IMG/VR virus record: IMGVR_UViG_2603880147_000004
Length of the DNA: 8,331 nucleotides
Source of the DNA: a virus
Taxonomy: Duplodnaviria; Heunggongvirae; Uroviricota; Caudoviricetes
Direction: 5' to 3' (one strand)
This document shows, piece after piece, positions 1 through 8,331 of the stretch. The notes under the pieces were generated by a model, which was given only the letters and a program-made list of their open reading frames with translations, had not been told where the DNA came from and made no database searches. Within the stretch, counting starts at the first letter, position 1. Each line of letters opens with the position of its first letter. Position numbers and translations under genes: made by a program.

Positions 1-309
1 AGTGAAACCCGGTATGGATGTGGCTTCGGCCCCTTCCGTAAGAAAGTGCGCTTTGGTGATGGCTATTCCCAGCGAGCGCCTGCCGGGCTGAATGCCGACC
101 TGAAAACGTACAGCGTGACGCTTTCTGTTCCCCGTTGGGAGGCCACGGCGCTGGAGTCGTTTCTGGCTGAGCACGGGGGCTGGAAAGCCTTTCTGTGGAC
201 GCCGCCTTATGAGTGGCGGCAGATAAAGGTGACCTGCGCAAAATGGTCGTCGCGGGTCAGTATGCTGCGTGTTGAGTTCAGCGCAGAGTTTGAACAGGTG
301 GTGAACTGA
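1..309 (+). CDS. M: Tail tip protein M, 3' portion (5' end lies upstream of the window); reading frame appears to shift at an A-run near 40-45
   Basis: Frame 1 from 46 to stop TGA 307-309 translates to VRFGDGYSQRAPAGLNADLKTYSVTLSVPRWEATALESFLAEHGGWKAFLWTPPYEWRQIKVTCAKWSSRVSMLRVEFSAEFEQVVN, matching my recollection of the lambda gpM C-terminus. Bases 2-45 match gpM only in frame 2 (VKPGMDVASAPSVRK). Stop overlaps the L start (TGATG). Confidence 0.8.
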   Translation, partial: SETRYGCGFGPFRKKVRFGDGYSQRAPAGLNADLKTYSVTLSVPRWEATALESFLAEHGGWKAFLWTPPYEWRQIKVTCAKWSSRVSMLRVEFSAEFEQVVN

Positions 310-1007
310 TGCAGGATATCCGGCAGGAAACACTGAATGAATGCACCCGTGCGGAGCAGTCGGCCAGCGTGGTGCTCTGGGAAATCGATCTGACAGAGGT
401 CGGTGGAGAACGTTATTTTTTCTGTAATGAGCAGAACGAAAAAGGTGAGCCGGTCACCTGGCAGGGGCGACAGTATCAGCCGTATCCCATTCAGGGGAGT
501 GGTTTTGAACTGAATGGCAAAGGCACCAGTACGCGCCCCACGCTGACGGTTTCTAACCTGTACGGTATGGTCACCGGGATGGCGGAAGATCTGCAGAGTC
601 TGGTCGGCGGAACGGTGGTCCGGCGTAAGGTTTACGCCCGTTTTCTGGATGCGGTGAACTTCGTCAACGGAAACAGCGAAGCCGATCCGGAGCAGGAGGT
701 GATCAGCCGCTGGCGCATCGAGCAGTGCAGCGAACTGAGCGCGGTCAGTGTCTCTTTTGTACTGTCCACACCGACTGAAACGGATGGCTCTGTTTTTCCG
801 GGGCGTATCATGCTGGCCAACACCTGCACCTGGACCTATCGCGGCGATGAGTGCGGTTATAGCGGTCCGGCGGTCGCGGATGAATATGACCAGCCGACGT
901 CCGATATCACGAAGGATAAATGCAGCAAATGCCTGAGCGGCTGTAAGTTTCGCAATAACGTCGGCAACTTTGGCGGCTTCCTTTCCATTAACAAACTTTC
1001 GCAGTAA
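309..1007 (+). CDS. L: Tail tip assembly protein L (lambda gpL family)
   Basis: Intact 232-aa ORF, the same length as lambda gpL. ATG at 309 overlaps the M stop; SD-like AGGTGG at 296-301. Protein MQDIRQETLNECTRAEQSASVVLWEIDL...CSKCLSGCKFRNNVGNFGGFLSINKLSQ with a C-terminal cysteine cluster, consistent with the Fe-S cluster reported for gpL. Confidence 0.93.
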   Translation: MQDIRQETLNECTRAEQSASVVLWEIDLTEVGGERYFFCNEQNEKGEPVTWQGRQYQPYPIQGSGFELNGKGTSTRPTLTVSNLYGMVTGMAEDLQSLVGGTVVRRKVYARFLDAVNFVNGNSEADPEQEVISRWRIEQCSELSAVSVSFVLSTPTETDGSVFPGRIMLANTCTWTYRGDECGYSGPAVADEYDQPTSDITKDKCSKCLSGCKFRNNVGNFGGFLSINKLSQ

Positions 1008-1011
1008 TCCC

Positions 1012-1755
1012 ATGACACAGACAGAATCAGCGATTCTGGCGCACGCCCGGCGATGTGCGCCAGCGGAGTCGTGCGGCTTCGTGGTGAGAGCGCCGGAGGG
1101 GGAAAGATATTTTCCCTGCGTGAATATCTCCGGTGAGCCGGAGGCGTATTTCCGTATGTCGCCGGAAGACTGGCTGCAGGCAGAAATGCAGGGTGAGATT
1201 GTGGCGCTGGTCCACAGCCACCCCGGTGGTCTGCCCTGGCTGAGTGAGGCCGACAGGCGGCTGCAGGTGCAGAGTGATTTGCCGTGGTGGCTGGTCTGCC
1301 GGGGAGTGATTCATAAGTTCCGCTGTGTGCCGCATCTCACCGGGCGGCGTTTTGAGCACGGGGTGACAGACTGTTATACGCTGTTCCGCGATGCCTATCA
1401 TCTGGCGGGGATTGAGATGCCGGATTTTCATCGCGGGGATGACTGGTGGCGTCACGGTCAGAATCTCTATCTGGATAATCTGGAGGCCACAGGGCTGTAT
1501 CAGGTGCCGTTGTCAGCGGCACAGCCGGGCGATGTTCTGCTGTGCTGTTTTGGTTCATCGGTGCCGAATCACGCCGCCATTTACTGCGGCGACGGCGAGC
1601 TGCTGCACCATATTCCTGAACAACTGAGCAAACGAGAGAGGTATACCGACAAATGGCAGCGACGCACACACTCCCTCTGGCGTCACCAGGCATGGCACGC
1701 ATCTGCCTTTACGGGGATTTACAACGATTTGGCCGCCGCATCGACCTGCGTGTGA
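1012..1755 (+). CDS. K: Tail tip assembly protein K (lambda gpK family), two-domain JAMM/MPN + NlpC/P60
   Basis: Intact ORF. ATG at 1012 lies 4 nt after the L stop (MTQTESAILAHARRCAPAESCGFVV...). JAMM-type motif HSHPGGLPWLSEAD (HxH-x7-S-x2-D) with an upstream Glu (PAESCGF). NlpC/P60-like Cys (GVTDCYTLF) and His (NHAAIYCGDGELLHH) follow. Start is uncertain: the track offers TTG 970 inside L, and the classical lambda annotation uses the internal ATG at 1156. Confidence 0.88.
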   Translation: MTQTESAILAHARRCAPAESCGFVVRAPEGERYFPCVNISGEPEAYFRMSPEDWLQAEMQGEIVALVHSHPGGLPWLSEADRRLQVQSDLPWWLVCRGVIHKFRCVPHLTGRRFEHGVTDCYTLFRDAYHLAGIEMPDFHRGDDWWRHGQNLYLDNLEATGLYQVPLSAAQPGDVLLCCFGSSVPNHAAIYCGDGELLHHIPEQLSKRERYTDKWQRRTHSLWRHQAWHASAFTGIYNDLAAASTCV

Positions 1756-2324
1756 AAACGGGGGCCGAAGCCATCCGCGCACTGGCCACACAGCTCCCGG
1801 CGTTTCGTCAGAAACTGAGCGACGGCTGGTATCAGGTACGGATTGCCGGGCGGGACGTCAGCACGTCCGGGTTAACGGCGTAGTTACATGAGACTCTGCC
1901 TGACGGCGCTGTGATTCATATTGTTCCCAGAGTCGCCGGGGCCAAGTCAGGGGGCGTATTCCAGATTGTTCTGGGGGCTGCCGCCATTGCCGGATCATTC
2001 TTTACTGCCGGAGCCACTCTTGCAGCATGGGGGGCAGCCATTGGGGCCGGTGGTATGACCGGTATCCTGTTTTCTCTCGGTGCCAGTATGGTACTTGGTG
2101 GTGTGGCGCAGATGCTGGCACCGAAAGCCAGGACGCCCACGGCAGCAAGTACAGATAACGGCAAACAGAACACCTATTTCTCCTCACTGGATAACATGGT
2201 TGCCCAGGGCAATGTTCTGCCCGTTCTGTACGGTGAAATGCGCGTGGGGTCGCGGGTGGTCTCTCAGGAGATCAGCACGGCAGACGAAGGGGATGGTGGT
2301 CAGGTTGTGGTGATTGGTCGCTGA
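1653..2324 (+). pseudogene. I: Tail tip assembly protein I (lambda gpI family), interrupted by an in-frame TAG at 1881-1883
   Basis: ATG at 1653 overlaps the K 3' end by 103 nt in another frame, as in lambda. The frame is open for 76 codons (MAATHTLPLASPGMARICLYGDLQRFGRRIDLRVKTGAEAIRALATQLPAFRQKLSDGWYQVRIAGRDVSTSGLTA), then TAG, then the same frame continues with no further stop to TGA 2322-2324 (LHETLPDGAVIHIVPRVAGAKSGGVFQIVLGAAAIAGSFF...GGQVVVIGR). Total length 672 bp equals a 223-aa gpI plus stop. In lambda the position is Gln (CAG) as I recall. Confidence 0.85.
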
Positions 2325-2342
2325 TGAAAAACATTTTATGTG

Positions 2343-2370
2343 AAACCGCCTCCGGGCGGTTTTATCGTTT
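2343..2370 (+). terminator. GC-rich hairpin followed by a T-rich tract in the I-J intergenic spacer (terminator-like or RNA processing/stability element)
   Basis: AAACCGCC (2343-2350), loop TCCG, GGCGGTTT (2355-2362), then TTTTATCGTTT. Sits between the I stop (2324) and the J start (2385). Confidence 0.4.
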
Positions 2371-2384
2371 ATGGAGCATGACGA

Positions 2385-5300
2385 ATGGGTAAAGGCAGCA
2401 GTAAGGGGCATACCCCGCGCGAAGCGAAGGACAACCTGAAATCACCCAGATGCTGAGCGTGATAGACGCCATCAGCGAAGGGCCGATTGAAGGTCCGGTG
2501 GACGGATTAAAAAGCGTGCTGCTGAACAGTACGCCGGTGCTGGACAGTGAGGGGAATACCAATATCTCCGGCGTCACGGTGGTGTTCCGGGCAGGTGAGC
2601 AGGAGCAGACACCGCCGGAGGGATTTGAATCCTCCGGCTCCGAGACGGTGCTGGGTACGGAAGTGAAATACGACACGCCGATTACCCGGACCATCACGTC
2701 GGCAAACATCGACCGTCTGCGCTTTACCTTCGGTGTGCAGGCACTGGTGGAAACCACCTCAAAGGGGGACCGGAATCCGTCGGAAGTCCGCCTGCTGGTT
2801 CAGATACAGCGTAACGGTGGCTGGGTGACGGAAAAAGACATCACCATTAAAGGCAAAACCACCTCACAGTATCTGGCATCGGTGGTGGTGGATAACCTGC
2901 CGCCGCGCCCGTTCAATATCCGGATGCGCAGGATGACGCCGGACAGCACCACAGACCAGCTGCAGAACAAAACGCTCTGGTCGTCATACACCGAAATCAT
3001 CGATGTGAAACAGTGCTACCCGAACACGGCACTGGTCGGCGTACAGGTGGATTCGGAGCAGTTCGGCAGCCAGCAGGTGAGCCGTAATTATCATCTGCGC
3101 GGGCGTATTCTGCAGGTGCCGTCGAACTATAACCCGCAGACGCGGCAATACAGCGGTATCTGGGACGGAACGTTTAAACCAGCATACAGCAACAACATGG
3201 CCTGGTGTCTGTGGGATATGCTGACCCACCCACGCTACGGCATGGGGAAACGTCTTGGTGCGGCAGATGTGGACAAATGGGCGCTGTATGTCATCGGCCA
3301 GAACTGCGACCAGTCAGTGCCGGACAGCTTTGGCGGCACGGAGCCGCGCATCACCTGTAATGCGTACCTGACCACACAACGCAAGGCCTGGGATGTGCTC
3401 AGTGATTTCTGCTCGGCGATGCGCTGTATGCCGGTATGGAACGGGCAGACGCTGACGTTCGTGCAGGACCGACCGTCGGATAAGGTGTGGACCTATAACC
3501 GCAGTAATGTGGTGATGCCGGATGATGGCGCGCCGTTCCGCTACAGCTTCAGCGCCCTGAAGGACCGCCATAATGCCGTTGAGGTGAACTGGATTGACCC
3601 GAACAACGGCTGGGAGACGGCGACAGAGCTTGTTGAAGATACGCAGGCCATTGCCCGTTACGGTCGTAATGTCACGAAGATGGATGCCTTTGGCTGTACC
3701 AGTCGGGGGCAGGCACACCGCGCCGGGCTGTGGCTGATTAAAACGGAACTGCTGGAAACGCAGACCGTGGACTTCAGCGTGGGTGCTGAAGGGCTTCGCC
3801 ATGTACCGGGCGATGTCATTGAAATCTGCGATGATGACTATGCCGGTATCAGCATCGGCGGGCGCGTGCTGGCGGTGAACAGCCAGACCCGGACGCTGAC
3901 GCTCGACCGTGAAATCACGCTGCTATCCTCCGGTACTACGCTGATAAGCCTGGTTGACGGAAGTGGCAATCCGGTCAGCGTGGAGGTCCAGTCCGTCACC
4001 GACGGCGTGAAGGTAAAAGTGAGCCGTGTTCCTGACGGCGTTGCAGAATACAGCGTGTGGGGGCTGAAGTTGCCGACGTTGCGCCAGCGCCTGTTCCGCT
4101 GTGTGAGTATCCGTGAGAACGATGACGGCACGTATGCCATCACCGCCGTGCAGCATGTACCGGAAAAAGAAGCCATCGTGGATAACGGGGCGCACTTTGA
4201 CGGCGACCAGAGCGGCACGGTGAATGGCGTTACGCCGCCAGCGGTGCAGCACCTGACCGCCGAAGTCACCGCAGACAGCGGGGAGTATCAGGTACTGGCC
4301 CGCTGGGACACGCCGAAGGTGGTGAAGGGCGTGAGCTTCCTGCTCCGTCTGACCGTAACAGCGGATGACGGCAGTGAGCGGCTGGTCAGCACGGCCCGGA
4401 CGACGGAAACCACATACCGCTTCAGGCAGCTGGCGCCAGGGAACTACAGGCTGACGGTCCGGGCGGTAAATGCGTGGGGACAGCAGGGCGATCCGGCGTT
4501 GGTATCGTTCCGGATTGCCGCCCCGGCAGCGCCGTCGCGGATTGAGCTGACGTCGGGCTATTTTCAGATAACTGCCACGCCGCATCTTGCGGTTTATGAT
4601 CCGACGGTACAGTTTGAGTTCTGGTTCTCGGAAAAGCGGATTGCGGATATCAGGCAGGTTGAAACCACAGCACGCTATCTTGGCACGGCGCTGTACTGGA
4701 TAGCCGCCAGTATCAATATCAGGCCGGGCCATGATTATTATTTTTACGTTCGCAGTGTGAACACCGTTGGCAAATCGGCATTCGTGGAGGCTGTTGGTCA
4801 GCCGAGTGATGATGCATCCGGCTATCTGGATTTTTTCAAAGGCGAGATAGGGAAAACCCATCTGGCTCAGGAGCTGTGGACGCAGATTGATAACGGTCAG
4901 CTTGCGCCTGACCTGGCTGAAATCAGGACGTCCATTACGGATGTCAGCAATGAAATCACGCAGACCGTCAATAAGAAACTGGAAGACCAGAGTGCGGCAA
5001 TTCAGCAGATACAGAAGGTTCAGGTTGATACAAATAATAACCTGAACAGCATGTGGGCTGTGAAGCTGCAGCAGATGCAGGACGGACGCCTTTATATCGC
5101 GGGTATTGGTGTCGGTATTGAGAACACCCCTGACGGCATGCAGAGTCAGGTGCTGCTGGCGGCGGACAGGATTGCGATGGTTAATCCTGCGAATGGCAAC
5201 ACAAAACCGATGTTTGTTGGTCAGGGCGATCAGATATTCATGAACGACGTGTTCCTGAAACGCCTGACGGCCCCCACCATTACCAGCGGTGGAAATCCAC

Positions 5301-5863
5301 CGGCATTTTCCCTGACACCGGACGGAAAGCTGACTGCTAAAAATGCGGATATCAGTGGCAGTGTGAATGCGAACTCCGGGACGCTCAACAACGTCACGAT
5401 TAATGAGAACTGTCAGATTAAGGGGAAACTGTCAGCCAATCAGATTGAAGGCGATATTGTCAAAACAGTGGGTAAGGCTTTCCCGCGGGACTCCCGGGCA
5501 CCGGAGCGGTGGCCATCAGGGACCATTACCGTCAGGATTTATGACGATCAGCCTTTTGACAGGCAAATTGTTATTCCAGCGGTGGCATTCTGCGGCGCTA
5601 AACATGAGCGGGAGAATAACGATATTTATTCGTCATGCCGCCTGATAGTGAAGAAAAATGGTGCTGAAATTTATAACCGTACCGCGCTGGATAATACGCT
5701 GATTTACAGTGGTGTTATTGATATGCCAGCTGGTCACGGCCACATGACGCTGGAGTTTTCGGTGTCAGCATGGCTGGTAAATGACTGGTATCCCACAGCA
5801 AGTATCAGCGATTTGCTGGTTGTGGTGATGAAGAAAGCCACCGCTGGCATCAGTATCAGCTGA
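2385..5863 (+). pseudogene. J: Tip attachment / host specificity protein J (central tail fibre), with a frameshift about 20 codons from the start; the long open frame is 2450-5863
   Basis: ATG at 2385 with GGAG at 2373-2376 encodes [20 protein letters not shown], the gpJ N-terminus as I recall it, and hits TGA at 2454-2456 after about 22 codons. The 1137-codon ORF 2450-5863 is in another frame, begins [32 protein letters not shown] (lambda gpJ residues about 23 onward) and has no SD before its ATG. This implies a net 1-bp deletion near 2440-2448. The rest is gpJ-like to about 4840, then divergent. Confidence 0.88.
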
Positions 5864-5881
5864 ATTTTATAACCCATATAC

Positions 5882-5909
5882 GGGCGCCAGAAATGGCGCC
5901 TTTTTTATT
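5882..5909 (+). terminator. Rho-independent terminator downstream of J
   Basis: Perfect palindromic stem GGCGCC (5883-5888), loop AGAAAT, GGCGCC (5895-5900), then TTTTTTATT, 19 nt after the J stop. Confidence 0.75.
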
Positions 5910-5930
5910 GCAGAAAAGCGAGAGGTAATT

Positions 5931-6530
5931 ATGCGTAAAGTTTGTGCAGCCATTTTGTCCGCAGCCATCTGTCTGGCCGTATCCGGTGCGCCTGCATGGG
6001 CGTCTGAGCAGCAGGCCACACTGAGCGCAGGGTATCTTCATGCCCGTACGAACGCTCCCGGCAGCGATAATCTGAACGGGATTAACGTGAAATACCGTTA
6101 TGAGTTTACGGACACGCTGGGGCTGATTACGTCATTCAGTTATGCCAACGCTGAAGATGAGCAAAAAACGCATTACAGCGATACCCGCTGGTATGAAGAT
6201 TCCGTGCGTAACCGCTGGTTCAGCGTGATGGCGGGGCCGTCTGTGCGCGTGAATGAATGGTTCAGCGCGTATGCGATGGTGGGTGTGGCTTACAGCCGTG
6301 TGTCGACTTTCTCCGGGAATTATCTGCAGGTGACCGACAATACGGGGAAAACGCACGATGTGCTGACCGGAAGTGATGACGGTCGCCACAGCAACACGTC
6401 TCTGGCGTGGGGGGCTGGCGTGCAGTTTAACCCGACCGAATCCGTGGCCGTTGATGTCGCTTATGAAGGCTCCGGCAGCGGTGACTGGCGTACCAACAGT
6501 TTCATCGTTGGTGTCGGTTATAAATTCTGA
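5931..6530 (+). CDS. lom: Lom-like outer membrane protein (Ail/Lom/PagC/OmpX 8-strand beta-barrel family), prophage moron
   Basis: 199-aa ORF with SD GAGAGG at 5920-5925 five nt before the ATG. Signal peptide [24 protein letters not shown] then SEQQ. C-terminus [22 protein letters not shown] ends in the aromatic residue typical of OMP barrels and closely matches the lambda Lom C-terminus as I recall it. Internal [12 protein letters not shown] and SVMAGP motifs are also shared. It sits between J and stf as in lambda. Confidence 0.9.
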
Positions 6531-6556
6531 TTAGCCAGGTAACACAGTGTTATGAC

Positions 6557-6583
6557 AGCCCGCCGGTTCAGGCGGGCTTTTTT
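6557..6583 (+). terminator. Rho-independent terminator downstream of lom
   Basis: Stem AGCCCGCC (6557-6564), loop GGTTCA, GGCGGGCT (6571-6578), then TTTTTTGTGG, 27 nt after the lom stop. Confidence 0.75.
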
Positions 6584-6594
6584 GTGGGGGGAAT

Positions 6595-8331
6595 ATGGCA
6601 GTACGGATTTCAGGTGTACTGAAAGATGGCGCAGGTAAGCCGATACAAAACTGCACCATTCAGCTAAAGGCCAGGCGCAACAGCACCACGGTGGTGGTGA
6701 ACACAGTGGCCTCAGAAAACCCGGATGAAGCCGGGCGTTACACAATGGACGTCGAGTATGGTCAGTACAGCGTCAGTCTGTTGGTGGAGGGATTCCCGCC
6801 GTCACACGCCGGGATTATCACCGTATATGAGGACTCAAAGCCGGGCACACTGAATGATTTCCTCGGTGCAATGACGGAGGATGATGTCCGGCCAGAGGCA
6901 CTGCGCCGTTTTGAACTGATGGTGGAAGAGGTGGCGCGTAACGCGTCCGCAGTGGCACAGAACACGGCAGCCGCGAAGAAGTCAGCCAGCGATGCCCGCA
7001 CCTCAGCCCGGGATGCGGCGGCCTCAAAAGAGGCAGCGAAATCATCAGAAACGAACGCATCATCAAGCGCCAGTAGTGCCGCTTCCTCGGCAACGGCGGC
7101 AGGAAATTCCGCGAAGGCGGCAAAGACGTCCGAGACGAACGCCAGGTCTTCTGAAACGGCAGCGGGACAGAGTGCCTCAGCTGCGGCAGGCTCAAAAACA
7201 GCGGCTGCATCATCAGCCAGTGCCGCGTCAACAAGTGCCGGGCAGGCCTCAGCCAGTGCCACCGCTGCCGGAAAGTCGGCAGAAAGTGCTGCATCGTCTG
7301 CTTCAACAGCCACAACGAATGCTGGCGAAGCCGCTGTACAGGCCAGCGCAGCAGCGAGGTCAGCTTCCGCAGCGAAGACATCCGAAACGAACGCGAAAGC
7401 GTCGGAAACCAGCGCAGAATCCTCAAAAACGGCTGCCGCATCGTCCGCCAGTTCGGCGGCGTCATCGGCATCATCTGCGTCTGCTTCAAAAGATGAGGCG
7501 ACCAGACAGGCGTCAGCAGCGAGGGGCAGCGCCACGACGGCATCCACGAAGGCGACAGAGGCTGCTGGCAGTGCGGCAGCGGCAGCACAGAGCAAAAGTA
7601 CGGCAGAATCCGCAGCAACGCGCGCTGAGACAGCGGCAAAACGTGCAGAGGATATTGCATCCGCCGTGGCGCTTGAGGATGCGAGCACGACGAAAAAGGG
7701 GGTAGTACAGCTCAGCAGTGCGACCAACAGCACTTCCGAGTCACAGGCGGCAACGCCAAAAGCCGTTAAGGCCGCGTATGACCTGGCTAACGGGAAATAC
7801 ACCGCACAGGATGCAACGACAGGACAGAAAGGGATAGTTCAGCTCAGCAGTGCGACTAACAGCACTTCCGAGTCACAGGCGGCAACGCCAAAAGCCGTTA
7901 AGGCCGCGTATGACCTGGCTAACGGGAAATACACCGCACAGGATGCAACGACAGGACAGAAAGGGATAGTTCAGCTCAGCAGTGCGACTAACAGCACTTC
8001 CGAGTCACAGGCGGCAACGCCAAAAGCCGTTAAGGCCGCGTATGACCTGGCTAACGGGAAATACACCGCACAGGACGCTACGACAGCACAAAAAGGAATT
8101 GTCCAGCTCAGTAGTGCAACCAACAGCACATCTGAAACGCTTGCTGCGACACCGAAAGCAGTGAAAGCAGCTAATGACAATGCGAATGGTCGGGTACCTT
8201 CTGCCCGTAAGGTGAATGGTAAGGCGCTTTCAGCGGATATAACACTGACGCCGAAAGATATCGGTACGCTTAACTCAACAACAATGTCATTCAGCGGTGG
8301 TGCTGGTTGGTTCAAATTAGCAACGGTAACC
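6595..8331 (+). CDS. stf: Side tail fibre protein Stf, 5' partial (open to the window end, 579 codons, no stop)
   Basis: I translated frame 1 by hand from ATG 6595 to 8331 and found no stop. The ORF track omits it, presumably because it has no stop in the window. N-terminus MAVRISGVLKDGAGKPIQNCTIQLKARRNSTTVVVNTVASENPDEAGRYTMDVEYGQYSVSLLVEGFPPSHAGIITVYEDSKPGTLNDFL resembles lambda Stf as I recall it. An Ala/Ser/Thr-rich low-complexity region follows, then repeated KGIVQLSSATNSTSE..AATPKAVK tail-fibre motifs. G-rich SD-like run at 6585-6590. Confidence 0.9.
   Translation, partial: MAVRISGVLKDGAGKPIQNCTIQLKARRNSTTVVVNTVASENPDEAGRYTMDVEYGQYSVSLLVEGFPPSHAGIITVYEDSKPGTLNDFLGAMTEDDVRPEALRRFELMVEEVARNASAVAQNTAAAKKSASDARTSARDAAASKEAAKSSETNASSSASSAASSATAAGNSAKAAKTSETNARSSETAAGQSASAAAGSKTAAASSASAASTSAGQASASATAAGKSAESAASSASTATTNAGEAAVQASAAARSASAAKTSETNAKASETSAESSKTAAASSASSAASSASSASASKDEATRQASAARGSATTASTKATEAAGSAAAAAQSKSTAESAATRAETAAKRAEDIASAVALEDASTTKKGVVQLSSATNSTSESQAATPKAVKAAYDLANGKYTAQDATTGQKGIVQLSSATNSTSESQAATPKAVKAAYDLANGKYTAQDATTGQKGIVQLSSATNSTSESQAATPKAVKAAYDLANGKYTAQDATTAQKGIVQLSSATNSTSETLAATPKAVKAANDNANGRVPSARKVNGKALSADITLTPKDIGTLNSTTMSFSGGAGWFKLATVT
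7699..8193 (+). repeat. In-frame tandem repeat inside stf: three 132-bp (44-codon) units plus a degenerate partial fourth
   Basis: Units 7699-7830, 7831-7962 and 7963-8094 are almost identical at the nucleotide level. Units 2 and 3 differ only in their last ~24 nt; unit 1 differs at a few positions near its 5' end. Each encodes G(V/I)VQLSSATNSTSESQAATPKAVKAAYDLANGKYTAQDATT(G/A)QK. A diverged copy follows at 8095 to about 8193 (GIVQLSSATNSTSETLAATPKAVKAANDNANGR). Confidence 0.9.

Follow-up and report, generated by a model that had tools for sequence, protein, structure and literature searches.

The stretch of DNA analysed here (the window, 8,331 nucleotides) is the entire contig JNRO01000056.1 of GCA_000704685.1, a draft of 177 contigs of Escherichia coli 3_020_07_S1_C1 that was assembled from 100-bp Illumina HiSeq reads by using MaSuRCA 2.3.2. 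Drafts of two sibling colonies from the same stool comprise 121 and 155 contigs, and ST1139 and O8:H9 are common to all three isolates, whose read samples are SRS568135 (C1), SRS568201 (C2), and SRS568390 (C3). Without chromosomal flanks, the contig carries a lambda-type series of genes on one strand, M'-L-K-I-J-lom-stf' (Table 1). Comparison of the open reading frame (ORF) map with the lambda annotation gave the same order and strand throughout (M-L-K-I-J, followed by lom and stf), and the Pfam families also agree with those of lambda: PF05939 (in the intact, 109-aa M of the sibling contig L006), PF05100, PF14464 with PF00877, PF06805, and the J domain set. Once the lesions described below are repaired, BLASTP supports orthology to lambda gpM, gpL, gpK, gpI, and gpJ at 83-98% full-length identity (M, 94%; I, 98%; J, 83% over its full length).

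The window is the tail-tip module of an ordinary lambda-like E. coli prophage, probably of the Qin family, on an 8.3-kb short-read contig. It has been reported that, in the lambda tail tip, gpM forms the distal ring, while gpL and gpJ make up the conical tip (PMC10721106). The window differs from lambda in being a prophage copy in the E. coli chromosome, in the nonsense codon of its gene I, and in carrying other lom and stf-tail alleles.

The Qin cryptic prophage of E. coli lies between rspB and ydfJ and carries dicABC, relBE, hokD, cspB/F/I, pinQ, and tfaQ. In the chromosome-level genome of 1297KP, the prophage between rspB and ydfJ contains the dicA/dicB/relBE/cspB-F-I/pinQ/tfaQ set and is thus a Qin element; it keeps the whole head-tail module, which the Qin of K-12 is not known to have. 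1297KP is the closest complete relative. From position 3475 to its end, the window differs from the tail end of the 1297KP Qin locus by five sites and one stf repeat unit, whereas positions 751-3460 depart from Qin and bear the alleles of other prophage types. 1297KP is an unrelated Czech isolate, and its Qin-family prophage holds further pseudogenes and an IS remnant.

Table 1. Genes, sequence elements, and haplotype blocks of the window
Feature	Position	Strand	Description
Gene M, 3' 102 codons	1-309	+	Distal tail protein; contig opens at M codon 8; G missing at 45/46, frame shifted
Gene L	309-1007	+	Tail tip hub protein; intact, 232 aa; 98% identity to lambda gpL; Pfam PF05100
Gene K	1012-1755	+	JAB/NlpC-P60 tail assembly peptidase; intact, 247 aa; 96% identity to lambda gpK; PF14464 and PF00877
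Gene I	1653-2324	+	Tail tip insertion/plug protein; TAG at 1881-1883; PGAP-style start at 1752; called fragments 1752-1883 (43 aa) and 1911-2324 (137 aa)
Gene J	2385-5863	+	Central tail fibre / host specificity; base missing at 2444/2445; ORFs 2385-2456 (23 codons) and 2450-5863 (1137 codons)
Terminator-like hairpin upstream of lom	5882-5901		Terminator scan
lom	5931-6530	+	Ail/Lom outer-membrane protein; intact, 199 aa; PF06316; 42% identity to lambda Lom
Terminator-like hairpin downstream of lom	6557-6578		Terminator scan
stf, 5' 579 codons	6595-8331	+	Side tail fibre gene; open to contig end; N-terminus 61% identical to lambda
stf repeat	7699-8129		132-nt repeat, 3.3 copies; 1297KP and ECamp52 have one unit fewer
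'D'-type block	751-1766		Alleles of the second prophage type (2.80-2.82 Mb of 1297KP); includes the 4-nt L-K spacer
J 5' block, third haplotype	2327-3460		Identical to the CFT073 type locally around the lesion; best complete-genome match 98.1%
Qin-locus block	3475-8331		About 99.9% identical to 1297KP; 5 substitutions (3475, 3478, 3937, 4500, 5112) and an extra stf repeat unit

Lesions in M, I, and J

The sequence-only reading had described small lesions in M, I, and J next to open L, K, lom, and stf genes. All three lesions are present in the deposited sequence at the sites it gave, and the ORF map and the called genes bear out the open frames (stf up to the contig end). In M, a G is absent relative to every homologue, which changes GTAAGAAAGGTGCGC to GTAAGAAAGTGCGC only 45 nt inside the contig. 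Translation in the true N-terminal frame (VKPGMDVASAPSVRK...) hits a stop at about position 90, and the C-terminal 87 codons run in another frame from a GTG at 46; the sequence spanning the lesion is CCGTAAGAAAGTGCGCTTTGG, and its intact counterparts are CCGTAAGAAAGGTGCGCTTTGG and CCGTCAGGAAAGTGCGCTTTGG. In I, TAG stands in place of CAG; this is codon 77 of the 223 in the lambda-style gene, or codon 44 in the PGAP-style model. In J, the loss of one T changes AAATCATCCCAGATG to AAATCACCCAGATG, so that reading from the ATG at 2385 ends at the TGA at 2454-2456 and the long ORF resumes at the ATG at 2450; the lesion-spanning sequence is CTGAAATCACCCAGATGCTG, with CTGAAATCATCCCAGATGCTG and CTGAAGTCCACGCAGCTGCTG as intact counterparts. 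One lesion had been assigned to a homopolymer, which does not agree with the sequence: the T of J was lost between A and CCC, and no homopolymer slip is involved.

A fourth one-base difference lies at 1005, where the L-K spacer has 4 nt instead of 5. This is a natural allele, common to the second prophage of 1297KP. An argument from an excess of indels, which counted three private one-base deletions, was therefore dropped, since the one at 1005 is this natural allele, which belongs to the D prophage.

Inheritance of the stop codon in gene I

The TAG of gene I recurs within the present assembly, in the contigs L008 and L012, and in the sibling colonies, in the contigs L006 and L009. It is also present in the Qin element of 1297KP (L001), where PGAP/RefSeq annotates a 'tail assembly protein, internal stop'. 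Among 2,229 records, 1297KP is the sole carrier of this allele. I is the only one of the three genes whose lesion is reproduced in independent sequencing and assembly, and because it recurs in three separately sequenced colonies (C1, C2, and C3) as well as in the unrelated 1297KP, the amber codon is a real, inherited defect. The proposal that everything is an artefact, this stop codon included, could appeal to the I block being a repeat that is placed in three contigs of the assembly; it is next to impossible, and effectively refuted already, given the identical substitution in the three colonies and in a PGAP-flagged, chromosome-level Czech isolate. Fragments of I with 137 aa and 43 aa are widespread (10 and 8 contigs, respectively); this was also considered as support for the amber codon and was set aside, since most of them come from contig-end truncations or other causes and have CAG at the site; among the fragment carriers inspected, TAG occurs there only in the sibling trio and 1297KP.

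Residues 135-223 of lambda gpI form a plug in the lumen of the tail tip and are bound to gpJ (PMC10721106). A gpI truncated at codon 77 of 223 would lose this C-terminal plug domain, and therefore the Qin-type prophage very probably cannot make infectious tails without help. The view of the locus as a decaying cryptic prophage that no longer makes infectious tails is thus supported by I, which has a genuine inherited stop and a decaying relative in 1297KP, and gains no support from M and J.

Frameshifts in M and J and co-resident prophage copies

No carrier of the M or J frameshift was found outside this contig. In 5,426 complete genomes, the M frameshift was seen at none of 4,728 homologous places and the J frameshift at none of 6,835; likewise, the M deletion is shared by none of 3,531 complete-genome records and the J deletion by none of 3,853. 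Probes spanning the two lesions had no exact complete-genome match, and hundreds of records match them except for the single gap. In a set of 15 billion proteins, the 87-aa M fragment and the 1137-aa J occur in this contig only, and the repaired J protein has no occurrence. Other assemblies from the same centre also have M products of 87 aa. The K protein, which is intact, is likewise a singleton of this contig in that collection, with no second exact occurrence. Moreover, the start of J is intact in the sibling contigs L006 and L009 as well as in the sister contigs L008 and L012, and L006 also has an intact M, so that neither frameshift is reproduced in the same lineage. An apparent sharing of the J frameshift with 1297KP was rejected: the J of its second prophage also has 1137 aa, but it has a normal ATG start and a different allele, and the equal length is a coincidence.

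At least three closely related lambdoid prophages reside in the strain, and the window alternates between haplotypes. Within the D-type block, Qin-type sequence appears at 1429-1455, 1587-1590, and 1745, and sites 1436, 1521, 1536, and 1572 fit neither type. The Qin-locus block matches the sibling contigs exactly up to their ends at about 5180. No near-identical reference was found for the haplotype of the window, the best matches reaching 98.0% (1-2500), 98.1% (2327-3460), and 97.5% (L protein). Within the one assembly, K'-I-J is covered by three contigs, and L008 and L012 start at the same base and are identical over 2.1 kb. Among the three clonal sibling assemblies, the K sequences lie 23, 25, and 6 nt apart, in patches that match the alleles of co-resident prophages. 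The three assemblies take different paths through related prophage copies in a multi-copy region that short reads do not resolve, and their contigs end at shared branch points. The possibility that the entire middle block is a mixture of Qin and D made by the assembler was rejected for 2486-3388, because switches 2-3 nt apart cannot come from reads and the alleles fit a CFT073-like third haplotype.

Further analysis indicated that both lesions can be derived from pairs of alleles by one specific consensus error. For M, collapse of the sibling allele GTAAGAAAGGTG with the D allele GTCAGGAAAGTG gives GTAAGAAAGTG, the sequence of the window; for J, the CFT073-type TCATCCCAG and the Qin-type TCCACGCAG (present in L008 and L012) collapse to TCACCCAG, again the sequence of the window. 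The D-type M allele used here was taken from 1297KP and not from the present strain, which counts against the derivation for M, but other parts of the window itself do bear D-type alleles. Positions 1-3460 allow 2,593 distinct one-base deletions, of which only 18 are such gap-collapse products. Both lesions belong to these 18, which by random deletion would happen with p ~5e-5 in a test that is post hoc, having been devised after the data were seen.

The two one-base losses in M and J are probably consensus errors from merged near-identical prophage copies, a reading suggested by their being private to one contig, by the multi-copy region, by the discordant siblings, and by the exact gap-collapse products. 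In this process, sequences of two co-resident prophage alleles would be piled together at the MaSuRCA/Celera consensus step. Each gene has one spot where an alignment of the alleles with two compensating one-base gaps is as good as one with mismatches (three or two), and if both gap columns were dropped, the sequence would come out one base short. Both columns would be dropped only if the consensus caller met a tie or favoured gaps, and the D-type M allele would have to be present in the strain. No documentation of the exact gap-collapse behaviour was found for MaSuRCA 2.3.2, and that the assembler took this route is what we infer from the sequences. The examination of four related contigs revealed no other private indels, which counts against an assembler artefact. 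The pattern resembles that of collapsed-repeat consensus errors in being confined to one assembly, in lying in a multi-copy region with dense allele differences or at a contig end, and in the discordance of clonal isolates. An artefact had been offered as the alternative to a decaying prophage; it fits M and J and fails for I, and its mechanism would be the collapse of paralogous copies instead of a homopolymer error.

If all three lesions were real and lay in one cryptic lambdoid prophage, I would have been lost first, with M and J then decaying under relaxed selection. Several observations fit such a history: the I amber is genuine, the Qin relative in 1297KP has pseudogenes besides I and an IS remnant, additional decay in M and J is biologically expected once I is dead, indels rarely arise from Illumina data with de Bruijn-based super-reads, and the third-haplotype J 5' block must physically exist in the strain. 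It is nevertheless unlikely, as the M and J lesions are missing from the siblings, the sister contigs, the 5,426 complete genomes, and the 15 billion proteins, and both fall at rare gap-pair sites (p ~5e-5), one of them 45 nt from a contig end.

It is distinctly improbable that the contig is a chimera of co-resident prophages in which one or both frameshifts are real and belong to a different copy from that with the I amber, all three lesions never being united in one element. The alternation of Qin-type, D-type, and third-haplotype sequence in the window would agree with such joining, as would the finding that, in the siblings and 1297KP, the right-hand J/lom/stf block adjoins a Qin-type middle instead, and the end of the sibling contigs at about 5180 indicates a branch in the graph. 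However, lambdoid phages are naturally patchy on a fine scale as well, so that chimerism itself is not proven, and the gap-collapse coincidence speaks against real deletions. A gap-collapse pattern in real deletions would be possible, with a very small chance, if the frameshifts were born of out-of-register heteroduplex between diverged co-resident prophages and both one-base bulges were repaired to a deletion. In that case, prophage-prophage recombination would act as a site-specific frameshift generator and hasten the decay of co-resident prophages. In a lesser variant of this improbable reading, the lesions could be leaky and some tails could still be made: the ATG at 2450 from which J restarts lies across the stop codon of the 23-codon leader, and read-through of the I amber would put back the wild-type Gln.

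Taken with the genuine I amber, the consensus-error explanation of M and J implies that the window probably contains one ordinary, already-annotated prophage pseudogene and two consensus artefacts. Three independent lesions in a single element, as had been proposed, are thus not upheld, the M and J changes being private to one short contig in a multi-copy repeat and bearing a mixed-allele signature. In E. coli O157 Sakai, several related lambdoid prophages of one genome are reported to have long near-identical tail-gene segments in common, and many of these prophages to bear small inactivating defects (PMC2669165). The present strain is like that prophage pool in its near-identical co-resident copies, and unlike it in that a single defect is trustworthy here.

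Annotation of the lesions

The deposited record annotates fragments as genes, namely the 87-aa M, the 43-aa and 137-aa I, and the 1137-aa J. A correct annotation would label I a pseudogene interrupted by an internal stop, and M and J as frameshifted, flagged as possible consensus errors. There is nothing biologically remarkable in a dead I gene in a Qin-family prophage. Since two of the three lesions here appear to stem from merged paralogous copies, pseudogene counts used as a measure of prophage decay will be too high in short-read drafts of multi-prophage E. coli. Lesions that lie exactly where alleles align with compensating gaps form a simple pattern for which such drafts could be screened.

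Source contig and condition of the tail-tip genes

The window is the complete contig JNRO01000056.1 of GCA_000704685.1, from Escherichia coli 3-020-07_S1_C1, an ST1139, phylogroup A, O8:H9 isolate assembled into 177 contigs and 5.09 Mb (Table S1, PMC6222053). The project used HiSeq 2000 reads of 100 bp and MaSuRCA 2.3.2 as assembler; the infant stool that yielded this isolate also gave two sibling colonies, C2 (JNRP, 121 contigs) and C3 (JNRQ, 155 contigs), of identical ST and serotype (PMC6222053). Gene order is the same as in phage lambda. With the lesions repaired, protein identity to the lambda counterparts is 94% for M, 98% for L, 96% for K, 98% for I, and 83% for J. The window is a standard lambda-type tail-tip module, and all of its features are of known kinds.

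Genes of the tail-tip module in the window
Gene	Coordinates	Strand	State
M, last 102 codons		+	
L	309-1007	+	open
K	1012-1755	+	open
I	1653/1752-2324	+	TAG 1881-1883
J	2385-5863	+	frameshift 2444/2445
lom-type gene	5931-6530	+	open
stf, first 579 codons		+	open

The sequence-only reading had proposed three small lesions in M, I, and J with L, K, lom, and stf open, and the deposited sequence and the window ORFs bear this out. One G is absent from M at 45/46, CAG is replaced by TAG in I, and J lacks a T that is present in the CFT073-type allele, otherwise identical at this place; J is thereby split into a leader ORF of 23 codons and an ORF of 1137 codons beginning again at ATG 2450. In the frameshifted J (2448-2456, AGATGCTGA), the leader stop TGA 2454-2456 overlaps the 1137-codon ORF at its ATG 2450; if the lesion is real, coupled re-initiation could give a J protein lacking only the first 22 residues. 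The window also departs from the closest genome by one base in the L-K spacer, at 1005; this fourth difference is a natural allele.

The inherited stop codon in I

Over the whole window, no complete E. coli genome exceeds a 98.8% match, and 1297KP comes closest. The matching region of 1297KP belongs to a Qin-family prophage, flanked by rspB and a disrupted ydfJ, which carries dicA/B/C, relBE, hokD, cspB/F/I, pinQ, tfaQ, and a full head-tail module, together with an IS remnant and several pseudogenes. Window 3475-8331 differs from it at five positions and by one extra 132-nt stf repeat unit. Its I gene is labeled by PGAP as 'tail assembly protein, internal stop', so that the stop is already known from RefSeq annotation.

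An 80-nt probe over the TAG (2,229 records) matched exactly only in 1297KP, all others having CAG; among the fetched loci, those with TAG are the window, 1297KP, the sibling-colony contigs L006 and L009, and L008 and L012, two further contigs of the window's assembly. Since three separately sequenced colonies and an unrelated chromosome-level genome share the stop, it is not an artefact, and that explanation is effectively excluded. I fragment proteins from other assemblies were considered as further carriers and rejected, as CAG is present there and they are short because of contig ends or other disruptions. Residues 135-223 of lambda gpI form a trimeric plug in the tip lumen that binds gpJ (PMC10721106); truncation at codon 77 deletes this domain, and loss of tail function would therefore be expected.

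Seven contigs (L018-L024) of unrelated isolate, metagenome, and Logan assemblies terminate 0-3 nt from I codon 43/44, which suggests that in lambdoid I genes the amber position (1878-1883) marks a mosaic boundary or a point at which assembly graphs very commonly branch. In the second lambdoid prophage of 1297KP (L025, the D prophage, 2.80-2.82 Mb), an internal deletion fuses portal and head-tail joining genes that are both truncated; the tail fibre assembly gene is truncated too, an iss gene is present, and the element is clearly a decayed copy co-resident with the Qin-type prophage. In strain CFIAFB20190172, an IS110-family element lies between L and K of an otherwise similar tail module, which is another inactivation route at the L-K spacer.

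The M and J frameshifts in a multi-copy region

The frameshifts in M and J are private to this contig. Probes spanning the lesions gave no exact match in 3,531 records (4,728 places) for M or in 3,853 records (6,835 places) for J, and in many records the one gap is the sole difference from the probe. Among ~15 billion proteins searched, no other contig supplies the 87-aa M fragment, the 1137-aa J, or the K protein, and the repaired J was absent altogether. The J start is intact in L006, L009, L008, and L012, and L006 has an intact M of 109 aa.

Several observations indicate that similar prophage copies were assembled inconsistently here. K'-I-J is covered by three contigs of the window's assembly, of which L008 and L012 have a common first base (window 1219), are identical for ~2.1 kb, and then enter two further J types. 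Window 1-1005 equals L006 save for 389, 680, and the single-base gaps at 45 and 1005; 3475-5180 agrees with both siblings, whose contigs end at about position 5180. Between these stretches, 1090-3388 has ~45 sites unlike all of L006, L009, L008, and L012; 751-1395 and most of 1578-1766 equal the D prophage, including the 4-nt L-K spacer, while 2327-3460 is a third, locally CFT073-like haplotype to which no complete genome exceeds 98.1%. The alleles across 1090-3388 are natural. Comparison of K across the three clonal assemblies gives differences of 23, 25, and 6 nt, and the C3 contig is Qin-type where those of C1 (the window's isolate) and C2 are D-type. These differences imply that the three assemblies thread differently through co-resident prophage copies, and single-base detail in this region is unreliable.

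The M site is GTAAGAAAGGTG in the sibling allele, GTCAGGAAAGTG in the D allele, and GTAAGAAAGTG in the window; the J site is TCATCCCAG in the CFT073-type allele, TCCACGCAG in the Qin-type allele (carried by L008 and L012), and TCACCCAG in the window. Each allele pair can be aligned in two ways of equal unit edit cost, ungapped or with two one-base gaps that compensate each other, and removal of both gap columns with the primary allele's bases kept yields the exact window sequence. A scan of window 1-3460 with the alleles of Qin type, L008, and D covered 2,593 distinct products of one-base deletion, of which only 18 had this property, both lesions among them; the chance that two random deletions would do so is ~5e-5, in a post hoc test with the D allele taken from 1297KP. 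Even so, random mutation is a poor explanation for this coincidence. The result is what one would get from a consensus called column by column over mixed paralogous sequences, and the M lesion lies 45 nt from the contig end.

The earlier choice between a decaying prophage and an artefact thus divides by gene: the I stop is real and inherited, while M and J, being private and of gap-collapse form, are most likely consensus artefacts. A real nonsense mutation in a Qin-type prophage combined with two consensus errors is probably the correct account. Its main rival, progressive decay with all three lesions real, would leave the gap-collapse coincidence to chance, and is unlikely. A chimeric contig joining real lesions from different prophage copies would suit the mixed haplotypes, would face the same gap-collapse coincidence, and is more improbable again. 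Small tail-gene lesions, similar copies per genome, and inter-copy recombination are well documented for defective lambdoid prophages of E. coli (e.g., PMC2669165). The one mildly useful general point is methodological: apparent frameshifts in collapsed prophage repeats can fall exactly where co-resident alleles allow gap-pair alignments.

An 87-aa M product from the same GTG (window 46-309) is annotated in other assemblies of the same centre (proteins P0097 and P0089), the carriers being E. coli 2-177-06_S3_C2, Shigella dysenteriae 225-75, and KEO04328.1. This could reflect recurrence of the same one-base loss (pipeline artefact or hotspot) or merely start-codon choice.

Additional features of lom and stf

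Terminator-like GC-rich hairpins with T runs flank lom just upstream (5882-5901) and just downstream (6557-6578), which is the usual moron layout; a simple scan for a sigma-70-like promoter found none. In stf, a 132-nt (44-aa) unit is tandemly repeated 3.3 times at 7699-8129, with one unit fewer in 1297KP and ECamp52; since the array exceeds the 100-nt reads, its copy number in this draft is uncertain. Opposite the Ala/Ser-rich N-terminal part of stf runs an ORF of 346 codons from GTG (6762-7802, minus strand), where the record calls a 277-aa antisense gene; the corresponding stretch of lambda is annotated with the hypothetical orf206b. The window ORF probably arises as a by-product of composition.
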